Assembly: GCA_963706285.1 (NCBI GenBank)
Contig: CAVPLU010000012.1
Coordinates: 96,001-160,000, forward strand
Length of the DNA: 64,000 nt
Reading direction: 5' to 3'
From: Candidatus Bathyarchaeota archaeon
GTDB taxonomy: Archaea > Thermoproteota > Bathyarchaeia > 40CM-2-53-6
Below are positions 2,717 through 43,804 of this stretch, piece after piece; position 1 is the first letter of the stretch, and each line of letters opens with the position of its first letter. Position numbers and translations under genes: made by a program. The notes under the pieces were generated by a model that was not told the origin of the DNA, ran no database searches, and worked only from the letters and a program-made list of their open reading frames with translations.

Positions 2717-4820
2717 TCACTTTCCCAAGAAGACTAGCGCGATTACAATTAGGAAGACTCCGAACGCAAAGAGCAGCAAGTATTGCTGAACCATTCCGGT
2801 TTGAAGCCTTGAGATAGCACGGGAGAAGCGTTTACCGGTCGCGGCTATGCCGTTCACTGCCCCGTCCACGACCCGGACGATCGAACCTGTCGCCGCCGCT
2901 TGATATGCCGACTGACAGTCCGGAGACTCCGCCGCTGATGCGGTCAAAGAATCTGGATTCGACCCACTTACCGAGAGAGTGGCTCAAGGCGATTGTTCCG
3001 TTCACGAAAACGACATAGTAGGCCGGATTCACGTAGAGTCTGTTCCACAGGAAGTTGTATCCGGATCTTAGCAGAGGGTTCTCGAGCATCTTTGATGCGT
3101 CGATCTTCCTTGAGATGTAAAGCCCGTATCCGATTGCTCCACCCACAGCGAGGACTAGGACTGTGGTAAGAGTAGCTGCCAATTCTGGAGAAAGATATTG
3201 AAGAAGGCTCTCATTGGGGATTCTCTCGGGCACATTGCCAACAAGGGTCAGGCCTCTGCTCAGAAATCCGGTGAGAGCTTCTTCAAATAGAGGCCCGGCG
3301 AGGCCAATGATGATTGATGAAGCAGCGAGTAGGAGGTACGGGATATACATGATGGGGCGAGCCTCGTGGATGACTACTCCTTCGTGTTCCAGCTCTTTGA
3401 TGTGTGCACTTTTCGGTCCAAGAAACACCCATCCAATGATCTTGAGGCTGTAGACGAATGTGAGTGTTGCTGTGATCGCGGCGAGCACGTAGAGCCAGAG
3501 CTGTCCAGACTCCCATGTGACCGCTAGGATGGCGTCCTTGCTCCAGAATCCACTGAATGGAGGGACCCCCGACAAGGCCAGAACGCAAACCAGCATTGTC
3601 ACAAAGGTGAGTTTCATGTTTGATCTGATGCCTCCCATCTCGTTCATGAATCGAGTTTCACAGGAGTGTATGACAGCCCCGGCAGCCATGAAAGCCGCGG
3701 CTTTGAAGATCGCGTGGTTCATCAGGTGAAACAAGCCCGCGGTGTAACCGGCGGCAAATTGCATGCCCATCCCGCCGACGCCGATCGCGAGCATCATGTA
3801 TCCTATCTGAGAAGCAGTCGAGTATGCCAACGTCTTCTTCAGCTCTTTTGCAACAATCGCTTGAGCGGCTGCAGCGAGAGCTGAGATCGCTCCGATCCAT
3901 CCAACAATCTCGAAGAATGTGAAAGGCTGACCGTACGCAATGATGGCAGCGAAGAAGATAGGTCCGGCGCGTGCTACCAAGTAGACTCCTGCCTTCACCA
4001 TTGTGGCAGCATGGATCAAAGCGGAAACTGGTGTGGGGCCAGCCATTGCATCAGGTAGCCATTCGTGCAATGGAAGCTGAGCTGACTTGCCGATTGGGCC
4101 CCAAAGCATGAGAAGCGCCGTCGGCAGAAGGAAACCTGTTTTCGCCAAATCGCCTGCCCAGCTAGTGTTTCGGGACAGTTCAGCAAGATTTAGCGTTCCC
4201 GCAGCCGAGTAAATGATGAAGATTGCAACGAGCAGACCGATGTCCCCGATTCTTGTCATTATGAATGCTTTCAGTCCCGAATGACTTGGAGGGTAGGTCA
4301 TCGGTATTCCCCAAGTTCTGTGCCCCTCGGAACCTACCCACTTGTCAGGCTCGTCAGTGTACCAGTAGCCTATCAACCCGTAGGAACATAACCCGACGCC
4401 CTCCCACCCAAACATAAGTTGCAGCAAATTGTCTGAGAGAACCAGCAATAGCATGTTTCCGATGAAGTAGTTGATGAAGAACCAGTATCTTGTGAGAGTC
4501 TTCTCTCCCTGCATGTAACCGATGCTATACACGACAATTAGGAAACTGACCCATGCGACTACATTTGACATCAAGACACTTAGTGGATCGACAAGCATGC
4601 CTGCTTTGATTCCGAGAGAGGGGATCCACTGGACCTGCAGGTCATATGTCTGACCGTCCAGAACGTCCGGAATCATCATCGACGCCAAGATCGCGGCGAG
4701 TAAGGGAAAAACGGCAGCGACTATGTTTCCTCCCTTGCGATTAATTCGGGAGACCGGCACGACTACGAGTGCGCCAACCATCGGGAGAATCCAAACGAGC
4801 CAAGGGACTATCGTGTTCAT
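2717..4820 (-). CDS. nuoL: Complex I-like subunit NuoL (frameshift near 2880)
   Basis: GWEGVGLCSYGLIG, GKSAQLPLHEWLPDAMAGPTPVSALIHAATMVKAGVYL. The C-terminal RLQTGMVQQY lies in ORF 2717..2947. Confidence 0.93.
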
Positions 4821-4830
4821 TGTTCAACCC

Positions 4831-6318
4831 TCATTTGATCATGGTTGAAATTTGCGTGAGTATTCCGCTGATCACGGTATCAGGCAAGATTCCCAAGATA
4901 ATCGCCACTGCAGCTAGTATGATCAGTGGAACGGTCATCGTGAAGGGAGCTTCTACTACTTCCGTCAGTTCTGCAGGCAAGCGCCCGAAGAAGATGCGTT
5001 TCATTGTCCACAGAGTATATCCGGCCGTGAGCGCTGTCGAGATGACTGCGCCGATCGCAACAATCAGCTTCTGTAGCGTGAGAGGATGCATCGCGGAATT
5101 GATGGATCCGAAGAAGATCAAGAATTCTGATATGAAACCGCTGGTAGGCGGAACGCCCACTATCGTTAGGAACCCGATTAGGGCAGCTGTGGCGGTAATC
5201 GGCATCTTTCTTGCGAGTCCTCCTAGCTTGGATATGCTTCTAGTTCCATGCGCTTGCACTATGATTATTCCAGCAACCATGAACAAGATGCCCTTGCCCA
5301 TTCCGTGGCTCAGATAATGAAACATCGAGCCAGAAACACCATCAATTTGGACTGAAGCGATCCCAAGTAGAATGTATCCCATCTGACTTACGCTGGAGTA
5401 TGCCATCAGACGCTTTATGTCGTCTTGAACGAGCGCCATCAGTCCGCCGTACACCATCGTGATCAACGCCCAGATGCTAAGCTGAAATGAGATCGCGCCG
5501 ATCAATTCGGGAGAGATTGTCATGAGAATTCTCACGATGGCATATCCTCCGATTCCGATCATTGCAGGGGAAAGCAGAGCACTGATTGGAGTAGGAGCCT
5601 CCGCGTGAGTGGAAGGAAGCCAGACGTGAACACCGAAGGTCGCCATCTTCACGAGGAGTCCCGTGAGGATCATGAGTGTAATCCAGAACCCGTAGGGTTT
5701 CGGAATGACGGCAGATGCCAGTGACGATAGGTCGAATGTTCCTGCGACGCCCCATAGTGTCAGGATCCCTGCCAGAAGTGTAAGTGCTCCGACATGTGTC
5801 CACATGAAATACATGAATGAGATCTTGTCTCTGTCGCCGTATCCCCATCGAGCAATCATGAAATACGAAGGAATCAACATCAACTCGAAGAATAGATAGA
5901 ACTCGATCAGGTTGGTGGCAAGTACAGCTCCGATCATTCCAGCCGCGTAGAGTAGATACAACGCGAAGTAGAGACCGTACTCCTTAGATTCTTCACCCAC
6001 CCTGTTAGATTCTTCACCCAGCCTGTGCCTCATGTACGGCATTGAATAAACTGAGATGACAAAGCAAAGCAGGCTGACTGTAAAGACGATGGGTACGCTT
6101 AGTCCGTCAGCCCTGAAACCGAAGTACCCGATTGGTTCCCATTGGAATTTCTCCATAACATTTCCTTGCAGAGCCGAGAAGATGACAGTCAGTGTGGAAA
6201 GACCAAGGGGAACCGAGGTGATCCATCCCACCCGTGATCCGAGTCGGTTCGAGAGGAACCAAACCACAGGGACAAATGCAAGCGGCAGGGCAACGCTCAG
6301 GAAAAGCAGTGAAGACAT
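4831..6318 (-). CDS. nuoM: Complex I-like antiporter subunit NuoM (first copy)
   Basis: FYLFFELMLIP, KMATFGVHVWLPSTHAEAPTPISALL, DIKRLMAYSSVSQMG; intact, 495 aa. Confidence 0.9.
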   Translation of the reverse strand: MSSLLFLSVALPLAFVPVVWFLSNRLGSRVGWITSVPLGLSTLTVIFSALQGNVMEKFQWEPIGYFGFRADGLSVPIVFTVSLLCFVISVYSMPYMRHRLGEESNRVGEESKEYGLYFALYLLYAAGMIGAVLATNLIEFYLFFELMLIPSYFMIARWGYGDRDKISFMYFMWTHVGALTLLAGILTLWGVAGTFDLSSLASAVIPKPYGFWITLMILTGLLVKMATFGVHVWLPSTHAEAPTPISALLSPAMIGIGGYAIVRILMTISPELIGAISFQLSIWALITMVYGGLMALVQDDIKRLMAYSSVSQMGYILLGIASVQIDGVSGSMFHYLSHGMGKGILFMVAGIIIVQAHGTRSISKLGGLARKMPITATAALIGFLTIVGVPPTSGFISEFLIFFGSINSAMHPLTLQKLIVAIGAVISTALTAGYTLWTMKRIFFGRLPAELTEVVEAPFTMTVPLIILAAVAIILGILPDTVISGILTQISTMIK

Positions 6319-14492: not shown

Positions 14493-14711
14493 ATTCAAAG
14501 GCGACTACGAAGCCTCCTTCCAATGACACGACACAATACACCAGAAGACCAAATACGGAACCTGTCTCTCACACTATGTTCATGTGACGACACATTCACG
14601 GCACGAGAAGAAGCAAAGAATTATTCTAGCGTGCAAACTCAAACGAACCTTATATATTCACGCGATTAATGGGTGCGCCACCTTACTAAGCAAAGCCACG
14701 GAGATCCCTTC

Positions 14712-15641
14712 ATGGAAAGACGAGCGACCTTCACAATTTGCTTGTTGACCATTCTGGCATTCTCGTGGTCAGCAACCTGTGCACACGCTTCGTCAGTCAA
14801 CTACGCGATTCATGGCGGAAAGGTGACCGTGGAACTTTCCCTGCAGTTCTTCCAGAACGTCACAGCAATGCCAAGCGTGAGCCAGACGTTCTCGGGTGCA
14901 GCGTCTCAGAGTCTTTCATCCGCAATAGAAGGCAGCCTCAGAAACGAGGCCCGCAGCGCCTCAGTTTCCTCGCTTTCAGGTGATCTGAAATCAACAGGTA
15001 ACTGGATCAACACGACAATCCGATTCGATATCAGCGGGGTTTCCACCCAAAATGGGAGCCTCCTGAATCTGAATTGCTCTTGGATTCGCTTCAAAGTAGC
15101 CAACGATCTCAAGCTCGGAGATCTTAGCTACAACCTAATCGGAGCGACCTACATCAAACCAACATTTGAGAAGTATGCAGACTTTCAGATCGCTCCCCTC
15201 AATGCAACCGTTTCTGGAGTCGTATACAGACTTGACACATTGGATGTGACTCCTGAAGTCGCGGCTCAGAAGGCTGGCAACGCGACACTGCTTGACTTTA
15301 GCTACGTTTCACCGCCAGTTGAAGAGTGGAAGATGTCATTCAACTTAACTCAGGCTTCAACAACGTGGACTTACGCACCAGTTCCCGCTGTTGCAATGCA
15401 AATGGCGGTAACACCGAAAATTGGAGCGGCATTTCATCTGGATGCTTCGTATGCCTACAACGCGACCCTTTCAGTCGATGGATTCGCTCATGTGCACGCA
15501 GACACAATAACCACGGATGTTTCAAGTGGTTATGAACCGCTGCTCATGCTGGCTGTCGTGATCGCGACTTTCGCGGTCGCTGTGGCGACAAGTTGGGTTT
15601 ACAGGTCTCGACGAAAGCAATTGCCTCGAAGACGAAAGTAG
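14712..15641 (+). CDS. Secreted, C-terminally anchored cell-surface protein
   Basis: Signal peptide ending AHA, Ser/Thr/Asn-rich body with several N-x-S/T sequons, C-terminal TM plus basic tail RRKQLPRRRK. Confidence 0.8.
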   Translation: MERRATFTICLLTILAFSWSATCAHASSVNYAIHGGKVTVELSLQFFQNVTAMPSVSQTFSGAASQSLSSAIEGSLRNEARSASVSSLSGDLKSTGNWINTTIRFDISGVSTQNGSLLNLNCSWIRFKVANDLKLGDLSYNLIGATYIKPTFEKYADFQIAPLNATVSGVVYRLDTLDVTPEVAAQKAGNATLLDFSYVSPPVEEWKMSFNLTQASTTWTYAPVPAVAMQMAVTPKIGAAFHLDASYAYNATLSVDGFAHVHADTITTDVSSGYEPLLMLAVVIATFAVAVATSWVYRSRRKQLPRRRK

Positions 15642-15646
15642 CGCCG

Positions 15647-16171
15647 CTAAGCGCTTATTCTGGCGCTCGCCATTTTGGTGAGGGCATCTTCGCCGAATGA
15701 GCTTGAGAAGTGCTTAAGCAATATCCCTCGATAGAGTGCAGCCTCGTCCTCGCTCATGTACTGGAACATGTACGGGCCTTGGTATGGCGATGGTGCTCCG
15801 TCTCTTGTTATGAACTCAATGTGCATGAGCGGCTCTCCGCATTTGATGGTTATGGGCTGGCGATCGTTGCTCAGATTCACAAGCTCCAGCGCCAATCGTC
15901 CGACGAAACCGCTGTGGACTTTGGCGGCGTTCAAGAATGATAGCCCCATTCTTCCATATCGACTCTTGGCAGTGAGGTGAGCCACGTAGTTCGGAGGAGT
16001 GAAAACCACCTCGTGCGAGATTAGATTCTTGTGCTCCAGATAGTGCAGCGTCGTCTCATCTCTGACGGTTAAGACATATCCGTCACCATCTAGAAGATCG
16101 AAATCGAACGGGTGAACGCACTTGAAGGAGTTGACGAGTTCAAGGAGTTTGTCTTTTCCCAGTATGCCCAA
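15647..16171 (-). CDS. dCTP deaminase/dUTPase family protein
   Basis: AKSRYGRMGL...VHSGFVGRLALELVN...PYQGPY. Confidence 0.8.
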   Translation of the reverse strand: MGILGKDKLLELVNSFKCVHPFDFDLLDGDGYVLTVRDETTLHYLEHKNLISHEVVFTPPNYVAHLTAKSRYGRMGLSFLNAAKVHSGFVGRLALELVNLSNDRQPITIKCGEPLMHIEFITRDGAPSPYQGPYMFQYMSEDEAALYRGILLKHFSSSFGEDALTKMASARISA

Positions 16172-16239
16172 CGCTCGTATCCCACCTGTCTGGTGAACTG
16201 CTCCATTCCTCTGTTTTGTGAGTTTCGGATCGCAATATG

Positions 16240-16755
16240 TCAGGCAGAAGGAACGGCTGTGAAGGGCAGTTTCAAGCTCGCGCCACCAGCGTTCTCCTGG
16301 ACTTCCGGGGCAACCTTCAGCATAACGACGGTATTCGTGCCGAATTGAACAAGGAACGGAACAGAGACCGAGATCACGCTGGATTCTAGCTGAAGATTTC
16401 GTGAAGCGCCGTTGGTTATCATCGTCGCGTTCGTCACCTTCACGCGTATTGCTTCATACTGCCCGAGAGGCAGGCTACCCAACGCAACAACCTCGCTCAT
16501 GTTAGTCATTGCCAGATCTACAAGAGTTGATTTGTTTGATATGGACTGCCAAGCCGACGGCCCGCTAATGTCCAATCGGTGGGCACTGATTTCCGAGATG
16601 GTGACGTAGAGATGGTCTGCGTGAAGAGAGGTTGTCGAGGACAAGGTCACCTTCACGCCTCCGTTTATCAGCGGCGGAAACACTATGAGAAATGCCACTA
16701 CAAGCAGCACGATCACGGCGATGATTCGTTTTGCCCGCATCGTCTTCAGCTTCAA
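16240..16755 (-). CDS. DUF4382-like membrane-anchored exported protein
   Basis: N-terminal TM; HLYVTISEISAH...VDL...LPLGQYEAIRVKV pattern. Confidence 0.65.
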   Translation of the reverse strand: MKLKTMRAKRIIAVIVLLVVAFLIVFPPLINGGVKVTLSSTTSLHADHLYVTISEISAHRLDISGPSAWQSISNKSTLVDLAMTNMSEVVALGSLPLGQYEAIRVKVTNATMITNGASRNLQLESSVISVSVPFLVQFGTNTVVMLKVAPEVQENAGGASLKLPFTAVPSA

Positions 16756-17045
16756 GCGGCTCTATCAGAAGTGAATTCCATATAATCGTATCTTCGGTCA
16801 AGATACGTTCTTGTACAGACTGCTCGCTTCCGAGCGCCTCGTCCTAGCCGACGGTGAGACGTGGAGAGAAACAAGCGAAACGTTAGCTGCTGACTTCACT
16901 GTATGAAGATCCAACCCAGTGACGCCATCAGTAGTATGCGAGTGCTTCACCTAGTCGATTAGTGCATTTCATGCGGAATGGTTATCTAGCGCCAGACGAG
17001 CGTCGCTAGGTTGATCTCTAAAACCATTGGAGACTGAGATAGGGT

Positions 17046-17483
17046 TTGCCGAAGAATATCCTGGCTCCTGTCGATGGTTCTACGTACATGGAACGAAACG
17101 TCAGATACACGTGTCACATCGCCAAGAGTATGGGTTGTGACATGACGCTACTTTACGTGGTGACGATGCCGATCGGCATCATGTCGGACTACGGATATGC
17201 ACCTCCTGCATTTGTCGACATTGAGCAGTTTCGACGAATCGGCTCCGAAGTTCTTGAGAAAGCCAAGAAGATTGCACAAGAGAGCGGAATAGATGCCAAG
17301 ACTAGGCTGGAGGTAGCGTCTGGGAACGCTGCACAGAAGATCCTTGAAGTCGCCGAGAGCGGAGGGTTCGACCTAATCGTCATAGGCTCCAAGGGCCACA
17401 GCCTTCTCAGAAACGTGCTCGTCGGAAGCGTCTGCGACACAGTTTTCCGCCACTCTAAGTGTCCGGTCCTGGCGATACGGTAG
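17046..17483 (+). CDS. Universal stress protein (UspA family)
   Basis: NILAPVDGS, DLIVIGSKG..LVGSV...HSKCPVLAIR. Confidence 0.93.
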   Translation: MPKNILAPVDGSTYMERNVRYTCHIAKSMGCDMTLLYVVTMPIGIMSDYGYAPPAFVDIEQFRRIGSEVLEKAKKIAQESGIDAKTRLEVASGNAAQKILEVAESGGFDLIVIGSKGHSLLRNVLVGSVCDTVFRHSKCPVLAIR

Positions 17484-17680
17484 AGCCGAACAGCCACCAG
17501 CCGTACATGTGAAATATGCTGTTACTTAGCAGCCTTGGCTTTTCGTATTACGTCACCGTTGGACCTGGTGAACTTGATGCTGTCGCCTTTCTCAGCTCGG
17601 CTTCAACCCTATTCATTAACGAGTTATCTACACCCTCGAAAGGGGTCTAGCACAGCAATCCAGAGAACTCGTATCGATTG

Positions 17681-17753
17681 AAAAGAAAGAAACCAGAAAA
17701 AAGGGAAGTCGGCAAGAAGCGAACCCGAACTCCTTCTGGTCGAGTTTGCTTCT
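17681..17753 (-). terminator. Hairpin plus U-rich terminator downstream of the Tyr-rich peptide gene
   Basis: Minus strand AGAAGCAAACTCGA-11nt-TCGGGTTCGCTTCT (about 13 of 14 pairs, 17715-17753), followed by CCCTTTTTTCTGGTTTCTTTCTTTT. Confidence 0.6.
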
Positions 17754-17783
17754 ATGCTAACAGAATAGCCTTGTCGTTTTTGT

Positions 17784-17951
17784 CTAGTAGTGGTGGTAAT
17801 CAGCGTGAGGTGGTATCATGTGACGATCAAACCACTTGTAGTCATAATGTCCTCCGAAGTACGGATAGTCATAGAACTGTACGGGGTAGTACCAGTACTG
17901 CGGATAAGAGTACTGAGGATAGTACCAGTATTGGGGATACCAGTATGACAT
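17784..17951 (-). CDS. 55-aa Tyr-rich YPQ-repeat microprotein (not in the ORF track)
   Basis: MSYWYPQYWYYPQYSYPQYWYYPVQFYDYPYFGGHYDYKWFDRHMIPPHADYHHY. Perfect SD GGAGGTGA 7 nt upstream; downstream terminator. Confidence 0.8.
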   Translation of the reverse strand: MSYWYPQYWYYPQYSYPQYWYYPVQFYDYPYFGGHYDYKWFDRHMIPPHADYHHY

Positions 17952-18033
17952 ACCTCTCTCACCTCCTAACCACTCATGAACTACTGCCTAGACGCTAGAG
18001 AAAGTGCGATTGACTGTCGACGAGTTTCTCAGG

Positions 18034-18303
18034 CTAAAGGTGGTGCCATTGAGAGCGTCCACAGTTCGGACAGTAGTCAATGCCTGCATCAGTTGTAGCA
18101 ATCAAGGGCTGGAAGCAATACCTGCAATCCTCCATCCTCTCCACTTCTTGAGAATGGTTGGCAATAGTGCGGATCCATTCAGAGCCAGGCTTCGGATAGA
18201 CGTACCAGTGCTCATGTGGAAATCCATAGTCGTGGTATTCATACGTCCGATGTGCTGGACAATAAGCCACATCCGGCAGAGCACTTAACCCTCTATATGA
18301 CAT
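18034..18303 (-). CDS. His/Tyr-rich small zinc-ribbon protein (paralog 1)
   Basis: MSY..ALP..YCPAH...CRYCFQPLIATTDAGIDYCPNCGRSQWH; paralogous to 19663..19917. An alternative start at 18309 is possible. Confidence 0.8.
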   Translation of the reverse strand: MSYRGLSALPDVAYCPAHRTYEYHDYGFPHEHWYVYPKPGSEWIRTIANHSQEVERMEDCRYCFQPLIATTDAGIDYCPNCGRSQWHHL

Positions 18304-18572
18304 ACTCATTTTCATCCTTCCCTGCCATAATGGTAAAGCAAGGTCAGCATACATCTTTCAGTTTACAAGCGTTAGATATTGACGCCCCCGACAAGATGTG
18401 CACAGAAACATTGAGTTCTGGATCAATGTGGTGTAAAGCCTAGTAGTATTCAGCGTTAAGAAAACCTCAACCGAGGAAATCCGCAAGCCTCATGTGCTCG
18501 CTGTCAGCTTCAAGCCCTCGACGAGATGCGAGTGGCAAGGTCTTTATTGGGAAACAGAGAATTCACCAAGGG

Positions 18573-19376
18573 GTGCAACAGGTGCAGGTCTCAATCGATG
18601 GAACAACGATACACTACGTTGACTCCGGAGATCCTGCAGGCTAGACCCATCGTTCTTATTCACGGATTTCCGTTCAGTCATGAGATGTGGAGCCCACAGA
18701 TCGCCTTTCTAGAAAAGAAGCTGCGTGTCATCGCCTACGACGTTCGAGGGCATGGCAAGAGCGATGTTGGCGACGGCCAGTACACCCTCGAACTGTTCGT
18801 GGACGACCTCATAGGTCTGCTAGACCATCTGAAAATAGAGAAAGCAGTCTTGTGCGGGCTATCGATGGGGGGTTACATTGCTCTGAGAGCGATTGAACGA
18901 AACCCTGAACGCTGGCATGCTCTCGTTCTCTGTGACACCTCCTCGCAGGCCGATTCGAATGAAGCTAAGCTTAGACGTGCAGCCACGATAAGGGCGATTA
19001 AACGTGAAGGCGTGAAACCATTCGCAGACACATTCTTGGAATCAGCCTTCGCTCAGACGGCCAAAGACGCCGAAGCTGAGACTGATGATGAAGAAGATCA
19101 TCGAATCGAATTCGCCCATTGGAATTTGCGGAACCCTCCTTGCGCTTGGCTGGAAGAACAGATACAACAGCCGCGTTGAAAACAATCAACGTTCCAACGC
19201 TCATTCTTGTTGGAGAACTCGACAAGATTACCCCGCCCGTCCTCTCGCAGAGGATGCATGACGAGATCAAAGGGTCCGAACTTCACATTATTCCTCATGC
19301 TGGACATTTGAGTAACCTTGAAAACTCGGCGGAATTCAACAAGTGTCTGCTTGACTTCCTACAAGGACTGACTTAG
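18573..19376 (+). CDS. Alpha/beta hydrolase (enol-lactonase PcaD-like; frameshifted)
   Basis: MQQVQVSIDGTTIHYVDSG, then LIHGFPF, YDVRGHG, nucleophile GLSMGG, VGELD, AGHLSNLE. Confidence 0.88.
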
Positions 19377-19662
19377 AACCACTTAGCCATCAGATGATGC
19401 TTGAGCTTTGGCCTATTGCTGACTCTAATATGCTGGCATTTTCGAAGGCTGGCCCGCAGTTGATGCCAGCGCAAGTGCTCGCCAGACTCTTGGACGAGGC
19501 AAGGTATCTTTCTCACACTCAGGCGTATCATGTTTGGCGAAACCATTGATAGACCCTCCTTAGCTCTTGTCTCTGTTCGGAAAAGAGCCTACAATGGTTA
19601 GCGGTCGTAAACTGGAACACGTATGCTGGACTCGTCCATTCTCTTCTTACAGTGAAATTGAA

Positions 19663-19917
19663 ATGAGCTACGTATACCAAGCGTTACCGGGGTACTGTCC
19701 TTGGCATCAGAGCTACGACTATGACTACCTGTACTCCTACAGTCCTCAGCCACTATCACATGTGGACATGCAGCATTATCCTCTTGTAGGTGAGCATCAC
19801 GGCGGGGTACACATCTCAGAGAACTGCAAATACTGCTTTCAACGGCTGGTAGCCACCCAAGATCCAAGCATAAACTACTGCCCACAGTGCGGAAGGTATC
19901 AGCCGCATCGAATCTAA
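19663..19917 (+). CDS. His/Tyr-rich small zinc-ribbon protein (paralog 2)
   Basis: MSYVYQALPGYCPWH...CKYCFQRLVATQDPSINYCPQCGRYQPH. Confidence 0.8.
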   Translation: MSYVYQALPGYCPWHQSYDYDYLYSYSPQPLSHVDMQHYPLVGEHHGGVHISENCKYCFQRLVATQDPSINYCPQCGRYQPHRI

Positions 19918-20041
19918 ACATACTTTCCAAAACGACATTGGGGGCCCCAACGGCCCCCGTAGGCACAGTAGCTGAAACCTTCCACAATTCGATTATCTGC
20001 TTTACCCTTGAGATAGAAAATAATCGTTTCAATTCCTTTGA

Positions 20042-42571: not shown

Positions 42572-43804
42572 CTAGTAGACTTTCTCTTCGGTCCGTTGCG
42601 CTTCCGGAGCATCTGCTTCAGTCTCCCGCACTTGCGATTTCGTCGCAAGAAGTTCGCGGTAGTACTCGTGTTGTATTATGAGATCCATGACTTCATTCGT
42701 TCCAGTCCAGATCATGATCAGCCTCGTGTCTCGCAGGAGACGCTCGATTGGGTAGACGTTGGTGTAGCCTATGCCGCCCATAATTTGCATGGCATGGTTG
42801 ATCACCTGCCAAGCTGCATCAGTCGAGAATTTCTTTGCTTCGGAAACCAAACGTCGGCAGCGGCCTGGATCATCGTTCGCGTCTACGCAGCTGGCAGCAG
42901 CATGCACAAGTCCTCGTGCAGCATCAAGCAAGGTAACAGAATCAGCCACTTTGAAACTGACTGCTTGGAACCTGCGTATGTTCTCGCCGAATGCCTTGCG
43001 TTTGTCTGAATATCGTGCCGCAACTTCGAGCCCGGCGCGCCCCATTCCGATGGCTCCGGCGGCGCTGGTCATCCGCTCCGGAATCATCATACGGTAGAAG
43101 ATGTCGCTCGCACAGTTCTCCTTGCCAACGAGGTTCTGGGCGGGCACTTCGACGTCGCGTAAGACTAGACGTCCAGTTCCGCCACCTCTGGTTCCCAGCA
43201 ACCCGTAGAGGTATTCTGCGTCGACCCCCGTTCCTCGCTCGACAATGAACGCACTGATTGACTGGTGTGGTGGACCGTCAGGCTTGGTTCGGGCGTAAAC
43301 TAGGAAAAAGTCGGATTTCGCTGCCCCCACAATGAAACGTTTCTCACCGCGTAAAACGTAGTAGTCGCCTTTTCGTCGGGCCTCGGTCGTTGTTCCGAAA
43401 AAGTCTGAACCGCCTCGTGGTTCAGTCAAAGCTTCAGCGGCAACCCTCTCACCAGCTACCAGCGGCGTAAGCCAGTGTTCCTTCTGTTCGTCAGTTCCGA
43501 ATGCGTTAAGCGCCTCACCGACGATGCTTGGCATCACATAGGCGCAGGCAAGTGATGTACCAAGGACGCCGACTTCTTCTATTGCAACAATCTCGTCCTT
43601 CCACCCGAGTCCTCGGCCGCCGTACTTTGAGGGGAAACGTAAACCCAAAAGTCCTCGCCGTCCGGCTTCTCGAACATAGTCGCGCGGGTATTGTATTCGG
43701 TCAGCATCCATGTCTAGGATCAGCTGACGAGGCACAGACCGGACGAACTCTCGGACCTCATCCCGTAACTTCCGCTGATCCGCGGTCAATATTGGCTCAA
43801 ACAT
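42572..43804 (-). CDS. Acyl-CoA dehydrogenase
   Basis: [42 protein letters not shown]. Confidence 0.93.

Follow-up and report, generated by a model that had tools for sequence, protein, structure and literature searches.

Does an open reading frame (ORF) of only 55 amino acids (aa), so rich in tyrosine that it is easily dismissed as low-complexity noise, encode a protein under selection, and if so, what might that protein do? The question is raised by a 64,000-nucleotide (nt) stretch of a Candidatus Bathyarchaeota archaeon genome (assembly GCA_963706285.1, contig CAVPLU010000012.1, positions 96,001 to 160,000 of the forward strand), which we call the window and in which an earlier note, made from the letters alone, had singled out a Tyr-rich microprotein with YPQ-like repeats. 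We refer to this microprotein as YPQ; its coding sequence lies on the minus strand of the window (17784..17951, ATG start, TAG stop). We find that this ORF of extreme composition (31% Tyr) is a selection-constrained gene that is mobile between contexts. Very probably, YPQ is a genuine gene that is translated into a cytoplasmic microprotein of 55 aa, belongs to a tiny orphan family of a few close Bathyarchaeia lineages and is carried as cargo of a genomic islet together with a universal stress protein (Usp) gene and two zinc-ribbon genes. That the family is new and an orphan is well supported; its putative function is read from sequence. The overall explanation that we favour, which joins this gene to a mechanism based on aromatic stickers, comes close to an even chance without quite reaching it.

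The ORF, its translation and its count of 17 Tyr, 4 Trp and 5 His are found in the window exactly as the earlier note had given them. The protein (7.4 kDa, isoelectric point ~6.1, grand average of hydropathy -1.25) further contains three Phe, seven Pro, four Gln and four Asp residues, and is devoid of Cys, Leu, Glu, Asn and Thr. Its share of Tyr compares with 3.1% across the long ORFs of the same genome; when the stop-to-stop frames of the 2.13-Mb genome assembly that span 40 aa or more (29,263 in total) are ranked by Tyr count in a 50-aa window, the YPQ frame, with 16 Tyr, ties for places four and five. Aromatic residues (Tyr, Trp or Phe) number 24 in total, or 44% of the protein, and a Pro recurs every five to seven residues. 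Residues 3-24 consist of two 11-aa repeats, YWYPQYWYYPQ and YSYPQYWYYPV, whose 33-nt DNA units are 83% identical. Three PQ and one PVQ motifs fall between residues ~5 and 26, each with flanking Tyr, and residues 33-49 form a near-invariant motif of His, Asp and aromatic residues, GGHYDY[KR]W[FL]DRHMIPPH. Pro is encoded by CCC, CCT, CCG and CCA and Gln by CAA and CAG; the 33-nt duplication underlies the varied synonymous codons that the earlier note had highlighted. The Tyr codons (11 TAC to 6 TAT) match the 66:34 ratio of the genome. By inspection and hydropathy only, YPQ has neither a signal peptide nor a membrane segment, in agreement with the earlier note as regards the signal peptide, and we place the protein in the cytoplasm because no hydrophobic stretch is visible on inspection. 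Chymotrypsin would shred a protein with 24 aromatics, and trypsin should release a unique 12-residue C-terminal peptide (residues 44-55).

Evidence that the protein itself is under selection comes from its homologues. A word-indexed protein search returns the identical YPQ sequence as the representative of an eight-member cluster, and together with P0002 (52 aa, 71% identity to YPQ) and a single metagenome contig, L005, which encodes a tenth variant, we count ten distinct YPQ variants. One cluster member (P0007, 138 aa) represents the same ORF, called with an upstream read-through. All insertions and deletions among the ten variants are in frame, and all fall inside the repeat region. Invariant positions amount to 17 of 23 in the C-terminal part, as compared to 18 of 32 in the N-terminal part, and to 15 of 17 in the core motif; the His residues at the very C-terminal end differ among variants (HHY, HY, HH, HW). 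Between the window and L005, the YPQ frame differs by eight synonymous changes over 25.3 sites and six non-synonymous changes over 133.7 sites, resulting in a ratio of non-synonymous to synonymous changes per site (pN/pS) of 0.14 at a pS of 0.32 (Fisher p=2e-4). Of the five remaining frames put to the same test, a single one reaches nominal significance (p=0.019), and that is an antisense frame with 13 stops. L005 has the same Shine-Dalgarno (SD) sequence and the same 30 nt 5' of the ATG. The block that it shares with the window spans only 298 nt (84% identical), and the flanks beyond this block are unrelated. Judged by these alignments, the YPQ ORF codes for protein under constraint, retains its translation signals and occupies an accessory location. 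The selection at the protein level that the earlier note had argued for is therefore upheld by the homologues, the in-frame indels and the low pN/pS in the YPQ frame.

The translation signals point in the same direction. The SD sequence GGAGGTGA (17959..17966, minus strand) is separated from the YPQ ATG by a 7-nt spacer and is exactly complementary, over 8 of 8 nt, to ...TCACCTCC... at the 3' end of the 16S rRNA of the same genome, which reads ...GGATCACCTCCT.... What the earlier note had called a perfect SD is thus perfect against the organism's own 16S rRNA, and looks functional. SD use in this genome is sparse: about 40 of 1,046 long ORFs carry a 5-mer core within 20 nt of the first start codon, with a modest positional peak at -5 to -9. 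In 30 of the 50 genomic occurrences of the perfect 8-mer, a start codon follows at a distance of 3-10 nt, and ORFs of at least 45 aa open from 23 of these 30 starts, including those of two Alba genes (random-start expectation, ~11%). Perfect SD 8-mers in this genome mark real (small) genes.

The terminator-like element of the earlier note is present. A hairpin is present 3' of the YPQ stop (~17708..17761, minus strand), with a core stem that is kept in L005 and a loop that differs there, and beyond it lies a T-rich tract (~17681..17706, minus strand), likely an archaeal termination signal, which is conserved in L005. Folded as a 76-nt piece, the hairpin reaches -23.7 kcal/mol (z=-2.4; 4 of 200 shuffles fold equally well); as a 131-nt piece it is unexceptional (z=-0.02), and a simple terminator scan of the window does not flag it. 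A sigma-70 promoter scan was uninformative, the host being an archaeon.

How widely is YPQ distributed? The host is a metagenome-assembled genome of the Bathyarchaeia, as judged by its best PorB matches (63-69% identity), all to Candidatus Bathyarchaeota or Bathyarchaeia records, and hence an archaeon; on the archaeal model RF01959, which also matches bacterial control genomes, its small-subunit rRNA gene reaches 1468 bits. We note that archaeal small proteins are poorly annotated and that the Bathyarchaeia are uncultured, so that their accessory genes are almost unstudied. With the YPQ protein as query (E<=10), 3 of 41 genomes matched, one of them the host itself. The two non-self matches are noise: one (E=0.12) has two internal TGA stops, and the other (E=0.2) covers 20 residues within a frame of 166 aa. 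The 40 relatives are thus without a credible match. No match falls in the nine genomes of the same genus (69-95% complete). Pattern searches gave 58 matches and no relative in 185,579 species-representative genomes, 194 matches and one relative (L005) in metagenome contigs, and 10 matches and no relative in viral contigs. When 1.84 billion cluster representatives were searched with a profile, the sole match was YPQ's own cluster. Searches of Pfam, NCBIfam (E<=0.1), PHROGs, PADLOC and the PDB sequences gave no matches in any of them, and a length-restricted search gave no fused or longer forms. In the ESM Atlas, the YPQ sequence is present letter for letter, with neither a usable look-alike nor a model. 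Our literature searches, which did not extend to supplements, returned nothing on tyrosine-rich proteins of Bathyarchaeota, and nothing relevant on tyrosine-rich archaeal small proteins, microproteins or archaeal low-complexity proteins.

YPQ resides in an islet, which the earlier note had not recognised, any more than the zinc-ribbon neighbours of YPQ or the other Tyr-rich proteins of the genome. In DNA searches, window segments 14645-16792 and 20020/20087-21000 are contiguous in other genomes of the genus, and the 3.2 kb between them (~16793..20019) are not found in nine congeners, where the flanks lie side by side. The left flank carries genes for a surface protein, a dCTP-deaminase-like protein and a DUF4382 protein, and the right flank carries porB; both flanks are 93-96% identical in G001, and they lie ~56 nt apart in G008, G004 and G002. 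The junctions in the window read ...CCATATAATCGT|islet...ATAATCGT|TTCAAT..., and the uninterrupted empty site CCATATAATCGTTTCAAT is found in G001, G002, G004 and G008, the four congeners in which the junction was read. Given the adjoining flanks in congeners and the precise junction, ~16793-20019 is an insertion peculiar to the host genome, with an 8-bp direct repeat, ATAATCGT, whose left and right copies are read from the junctions at 16785..16792 and 20020..20027. In its precise presence or absence and its flanking direct repeats, the islet conforms to mobile cargo. The window genes of the islet include no integrase or transposase, no convincing terminal inverted repeats are found at its ends, and the insertion sits in an intergenic spacer with no canonical attachment site and no tRNA gene between 12000 and 24000.

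Besides YPQ, the islet contains intact and decayed genes. The Usp gene (PF00582; 17046..17483, plus strand) is convergent with YPQ. An alpha/beta-hydrolase gene (18526..19376, plus strand) is split over two overlapping frames, 18526-19179 and 19119-19376; the split marks either a frameshifted pseudogene or an error in the assembly. Just past the YPQ terminator, a gene remnant with an in-frame stop (17585..17677, minus strand) shares 86% identity with a segment of an ORF located at G000:C12:6221-6460. Near the left end, ~19 codons (16830..16886, plus strand) are the frameshifted 3' end of a gene that is complete in the sister genome G001, where it encodes 390 aa with no Pfam match and a weak similarity to the phrog_1 integrase (E=0.009). 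Near the right end, a 44-nt motif (19970..20013, plus strand) recurs at variable regions in G001, in G008 and on the host's own contig C12 at position 42864. In G001, the motif and the 3' end of the 390-aa gene bracket differing cargo, namely a Fic/Doc pair at one locus and an NYN-plus-zinc-ribbon protein at another. Such loci could constitute a family of cargo islets, and we infer that the YPQ islet belongs, in decayed form, to a family of regions with variable cargo.

Other repeated elements occur around these regions. Copies of the 44-nt motif stand at variable-region edges at L128 36-79, L127 172-215 and L136 ~2864-2909. The last of these lies at the start of a second insertion of ~2.5 kb relative to most congeners (C12:42836-45313; L136 ~2837-5314), which carries a YQPP-repeat paralogue (C12:44222-44602). 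A separate 48-nt element at 16930-16977 is also found at G000:C13:7233-7280 (90%), at C4:256702-256741 and on G001:C53, with no consistent type of gene downstream.

YPQ has zinc-ribbon genes as neighbours in the islet. The upstream gene (18034..18354, minus strand; CxxC...CPNCG) is Tyr/His-rich in its middle part and runs in the same direction as YPQ, with 82 nt between its stop codon and the YPQ ATG. Its second, inverted paralogue (19567..19917, plus strand) lies on the other side of the hydrolase gene. The family (C-x2-C...Y-C-P-x-C-G) has a Tyr/His-rich middle segment in most members, and counts four copies in this genome (two in the islet, and two at L010 1510-1779 and L014 1456-1755) and none in the nine congeners. 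One database homologue, P0010 (71% identity), was found; in viral contigs, 306 pattern matches yielded no relative. L005 carries a short relative of the same zinc-ribbon gene ~350 nt from its YPQ gene, in convergent orientation. The organism behind L005 is a related one; another gene of L005 is 77% DNA-identical to a gene of contig C4, which places the YPQ cassette in a different context there. YPQ probably shares a transcript with the upstream zinc-ribbon gene, as no TATA-like box was seen in the 82-nt spacer, and its translation probably starts from its own perfect SD. A functional link between the two is suggestive, the loci being few and related. Elsewhere in the genome, another small zinc-ribbon gene shares an ATGA stop/start overlap with the gene of a 129-aa MSYYQPPTQ-repeat protein (C9:84080-84627; L106 1081-1628).

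Small zinc-finger proteins of this kind have precedents. C(P)XCG zinc-finger micro-proteins of Haloferax volcanii have roles in stress adaptation, according to the accessible portions of the reports (PMC6562870, PMC11241148, PMC10716476). Set beside what those portions describe, the two neighbours of YPQ are likewise small archaeal proteins with CxxC...CPxCG motifs, but they carry an additional Tyr/His-rich segment and have P0010 as their one database homologue, and YPQ itself lacks Cys.

What could the protein do? In the mechanism that we put forward, tentatively and as something that more probably fails than holds in its details, the N-terminal half of YPQ, built by the 11-aa tandem duplication Y[WS]YPQYWYYP[QV], would be disordered and present a series of aromatic stickers. 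Through these, YPQ would either self-associate or co-assemble with the Tyr/His-rich segment of the zinc-ribbon neighbours. The His/Asp-rich C-terminal motif, GGHYDY[KR]W[FL]DRHMIPPH, might then provide a specific docking or metal-bridging site, so that the protein would serve an accessory module, possibly one related to stress, as its small scaffold or adaptor. If correct, YPQ would represent a minimal natural aromatic sticker peptide, useful for studying the sequence rules of phase separation or amyloid formation, and an entry point to the numerous Tyr-rich proteins of its lineage.

Known peptides that YPQ resembles most are sticky, low-complexity ones that self-associate, and some of its features have been seen in unrelated proteins. 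Among candidate prion domains of archaea, those that tested amyloid-positive contain P-Q dipeptides with nearby Tyr or Phe and have a higher Tyr/Phe content, as far as the accessible text of the report goes (bioRxiv 10.1101/2020.07.20.212902), and the accessible part of a study on Arabidopsis ECT2 describes a "YPQ-rich motif" (PMC7570210). Similarly, YPQ has Tyr-flanked P-Q dipeptides, is highly aromatic and has no predicted membrane or secretion signal, and the known proteins, within what these texts cover, form amyloid or enter stress granules. In contrast to them, YPQ is a stand-alone protein of 55 aa, is far more aromatic (44% Phe, Trp and Tyr), has a conserved His/Asp motif and shows no homology to either, and it does not belong to these classes. 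It shares the P-Q dipeptides with neighbouring Tyr or Phe but not the Q/N-rich composition of prion-like domains (Q 4 of 55, N 0 of 55).

Several observations weigh against the explanation that we favour. With Q at only 7% and N at 0%, YPQ is not a classical Q/N-rich prion-like domain. The pN/pS estimate derives from one sequence pair and 14 substitutions, and conservation has little depth, since no homologue falls below 71% identity. There is no evidence of transcription or translation of the YPQ gene: four RNA runs compared with the window gave four short, unlike pieces (88-94% alike) on porB and none on the islet, which is uninformative as to expression, and six sequencing runs checked for the locus, none of them an RNA holder, gave a 0.00 share of sampled words. 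Adjacency to a zinc-ribbon gene is found in only two loci, from related organisms, and the convergent arrangement in L005 means that the pair forms no operon there. Comparison by hhalign detects no homology of YPQ to the zinc-ribbon family or to the YQPP family, a group of Tyr-rich small proteins of the same genus (probability <=0.4%). Finally, the decayed genes of the islet, namely the split hydrolase and the two remnants, imply that its cargo may be under relaxed selection in the host genome.

The same conserved motif that we assign to docking lends itself to another explanation, in which YPQ is a small metal-binding or redox peptide. Here, H35, D37, D42, H44, H49, D51 and H53 would fold around a metal, the aromatic N-terminus would be secondary, and the peptide would serve as a metal buffer or chaperone or in electron/hole-hopping. 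The near-invariance of the 17-residue C-terminal core over the ten variants, next to repeats that vary, fits this proposal, as do five His and four Asp in 55 aa and neighbours that are themselves zinc-ribbon proteins. However, no metal-family match was found in Pfam, NCBIfam or the PDB sequences, the protein has no Cys, the terminal His vary among the variants, and the islet encodes no metal transporter or metalloenzyme. We consider a metal peptide unlikely.

Equally unlikely, in our assessment, is that YPQ is a young and fast-evolving accessory gene with little or no function, a selfish or hitch-hiking cargo of a decaying islet whose repeat arose by slippage or duplication. Its restriction to one species-level lineage and a few metagenome relatives would be expected of such cargo, and the tandem duplication of 33 nt is recent. 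The insertion indeed holds a split hydrolase and gene remnants, and an unrelated 55-aa Tyr-rich ORF of the same genome is just as lineage-specific and has a frameshifted twin. Against this, a pN/pS of 0.14 at a pS of 0.32 denotes sustained purifying selection, and the SD, start codon and terminator have been conserved despite relocation to a different context.

A modified-peptide precursor, as suggested in the earlier note, would require maturation. In this proposal, YPQ would be the precursor of a ribosomally synthesized and post-translationally modified peptide (RiPP), cross-linked by a radical-SAM/SPASM enzyme encoded elsewhere that makes aromatic C-C or C-O links. Darobactin, dynobactin and the cyclophane "triceptides" are such cross-linked RiPPs, made from short aromatic-rich peptides by radical-SAM/SPASM enzymes. 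YPQ resembles them in being short and aromatic-rich with many YxY motifs, and enzymes of the superfamily are encoded in the genome; unlike them, it has no adjacent maturase and no match to a precursor family (NCBIfam, none at E<=0.1). None of the 24 PF04055 radical-SAM matches lies on contig C12, and the islet has no protease, transporter or export gene and no RiPP recognition protein. As to layout, repeated aromatic motifs are present, but conservation is concentrated towards the C-terminus and variation in the repeats, which does not look like a typical leader and core. A candidate enzyme is the product of a single TIGR04084 gene (330.9 bits, cut-off 225), located directly upstream of a YQPP small protein gene (MSYYYVPRPP...YQPPPQ) in 6 of 6 genus loci inspected. 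This adjacency could mean that enzyme and substrate are paired, or it could be plain synteny; 20 of 41 relatives have TIGR04084 as a single copy, and no YQPP-like or other Tyr-rich ORF stands beside it in any of eight loci from other families, so that it may be synteny. The same literature searches returned nothing on TIGR04084. We regard a cross-linked YPQ as quite improbable and the precursor claim as disfavoured; if true, it would amount to new archaeal RiPP-like chemistry.

The earlier note's analogy with dityrosine-cross-linked, Tyr-rich spore-coat proteins fares no better if taken as membership of that group. CotC and CotU of Bacillus subtilis are Lys/Asp-rich in composition. They are described, in the accessible part of the source, as Tyr-rich proteins of the outer spore coat (PMC7944565), and the likeness of YPQ to them is compositional only: YPQ is rich in Pro, Gln and Trp, has no match in Pfam, NCBIfam or the PDB sequences, and belongs to an archaeon without sporulation rather than a spore-forming bacterium. 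Moreover, the host is probably an anaerobe, which makes peroxide-based dityrosine chemistry unlikely.

Very improbable is the proposal that the locus is an untranslated RNA or DNA element, or that the real gene is a 106-aa antisense ORF (17678-17998, plus strand). The antisense ORF is open in both the window and L005. Its openness follows, however, from the TAC/TAT-rich coding strand, and the antisense open frame has a pN/pS of 2.2, the eight synonymous changes of the YPQ frame falling on its second codon positions; this substitution pattern effectively excludes it as a gene. As for an RNA element, no Rfam family reaches threshold (Thr_leader, the only match, has 21.7 bits and E=0.71 where the gathering score is 55), and a perfect SD and ATG have been conserved. 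A mere chance ORF is disfavoured.

An aromatic-amino-acid leader peptide with attenuation at the hairpin and U-tract has a negligible chance: 24 aromatic codons are followed by a hairpin and T-tract, but nothing lies downstream on the same strand, with Usp convergent and a gene remnant in between, and 55 aa with a conserved, non-repetitive C-terminus are unlike known leaders. Gene order effectively refutes it, and the only match to a leader RNA family is the sub-gathering one to Thr_leader. To our knowledge, leader-peptide attenuation has not been described in archaea.

Returning to the sticker mechanism, the genome is unusually rich in Tyr-rich proteins, and a more general version would make YPQ one of an unrecognised class of archaeal "aromatic glue" microproteins and modules that would travel on small islets and, with Tyr/His-rich zinc-ribbon partners, build condensates or materials, either metal-bridged or covalently cross-linked in an oxygen-free manner, for instance by radical-SAM/SPASM enzymes. 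The starting point for this extension, which is speculative and unlikely, is the presence in one genome of at least three unrelated small Tyr-rich families together with surface proteins that have stretches of ~60% Tyr. By hhalign, the other Tyr-rich families of the genome have no detectable homology to YPQ. The YQPP proteins resemble it in appearance: they share with YPQ the M-S-Y-[YW]-Y start, a composition dominated by Tyr, Pro and Gln, the small size and the genome. They nevertheless differ in that they are genus-wide, some with Cys, and lie beside TIGR04084, whereas YPQ is confined to one lineage and lies beside zinc-ribbon genes; the hhalign probability is 0.4%.

The remaining Tyr-rich proteins are diverse. 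The TIGR04084 and YQPP genes of this genome lie at G000:C8:77928-79576 (L105 929-2053 and 2236-2577), with the enzyme gene at 77928-79052, and have counterparts at L114, L116, L120, L121 and L122. The unrelated 55-aa Tyr-rich ORF (C16:60129-60296; L108 630-797, minus strand) has ~30% Tyr, ends in ...NYW and is preceded by a strong SD-like GGAGGTG; its frameshifted twin lies on C9 (L106 ~4621-4836), and it was not found in the 40 relatives. Two paralogous surface proteins of ~445 aa (C9:88744-90087, L106 5745-7088; and C10:107595-108932) have up to 30 Tyr per 50 residues directly after the signal sequence; they further contain a divergent InlB B-repeat domain and are anchored in the membrane at the C-terminus. 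Further small proteins, some of them Gly-zipper membrane proteins, have Tyr/Pro-rich tails (C6:16547-16837, C3:139652-140062, C3:140109-140402 and C8:79235-79576), and these tails mostly end in aromatic residues, for instance in G-[YF]-W.

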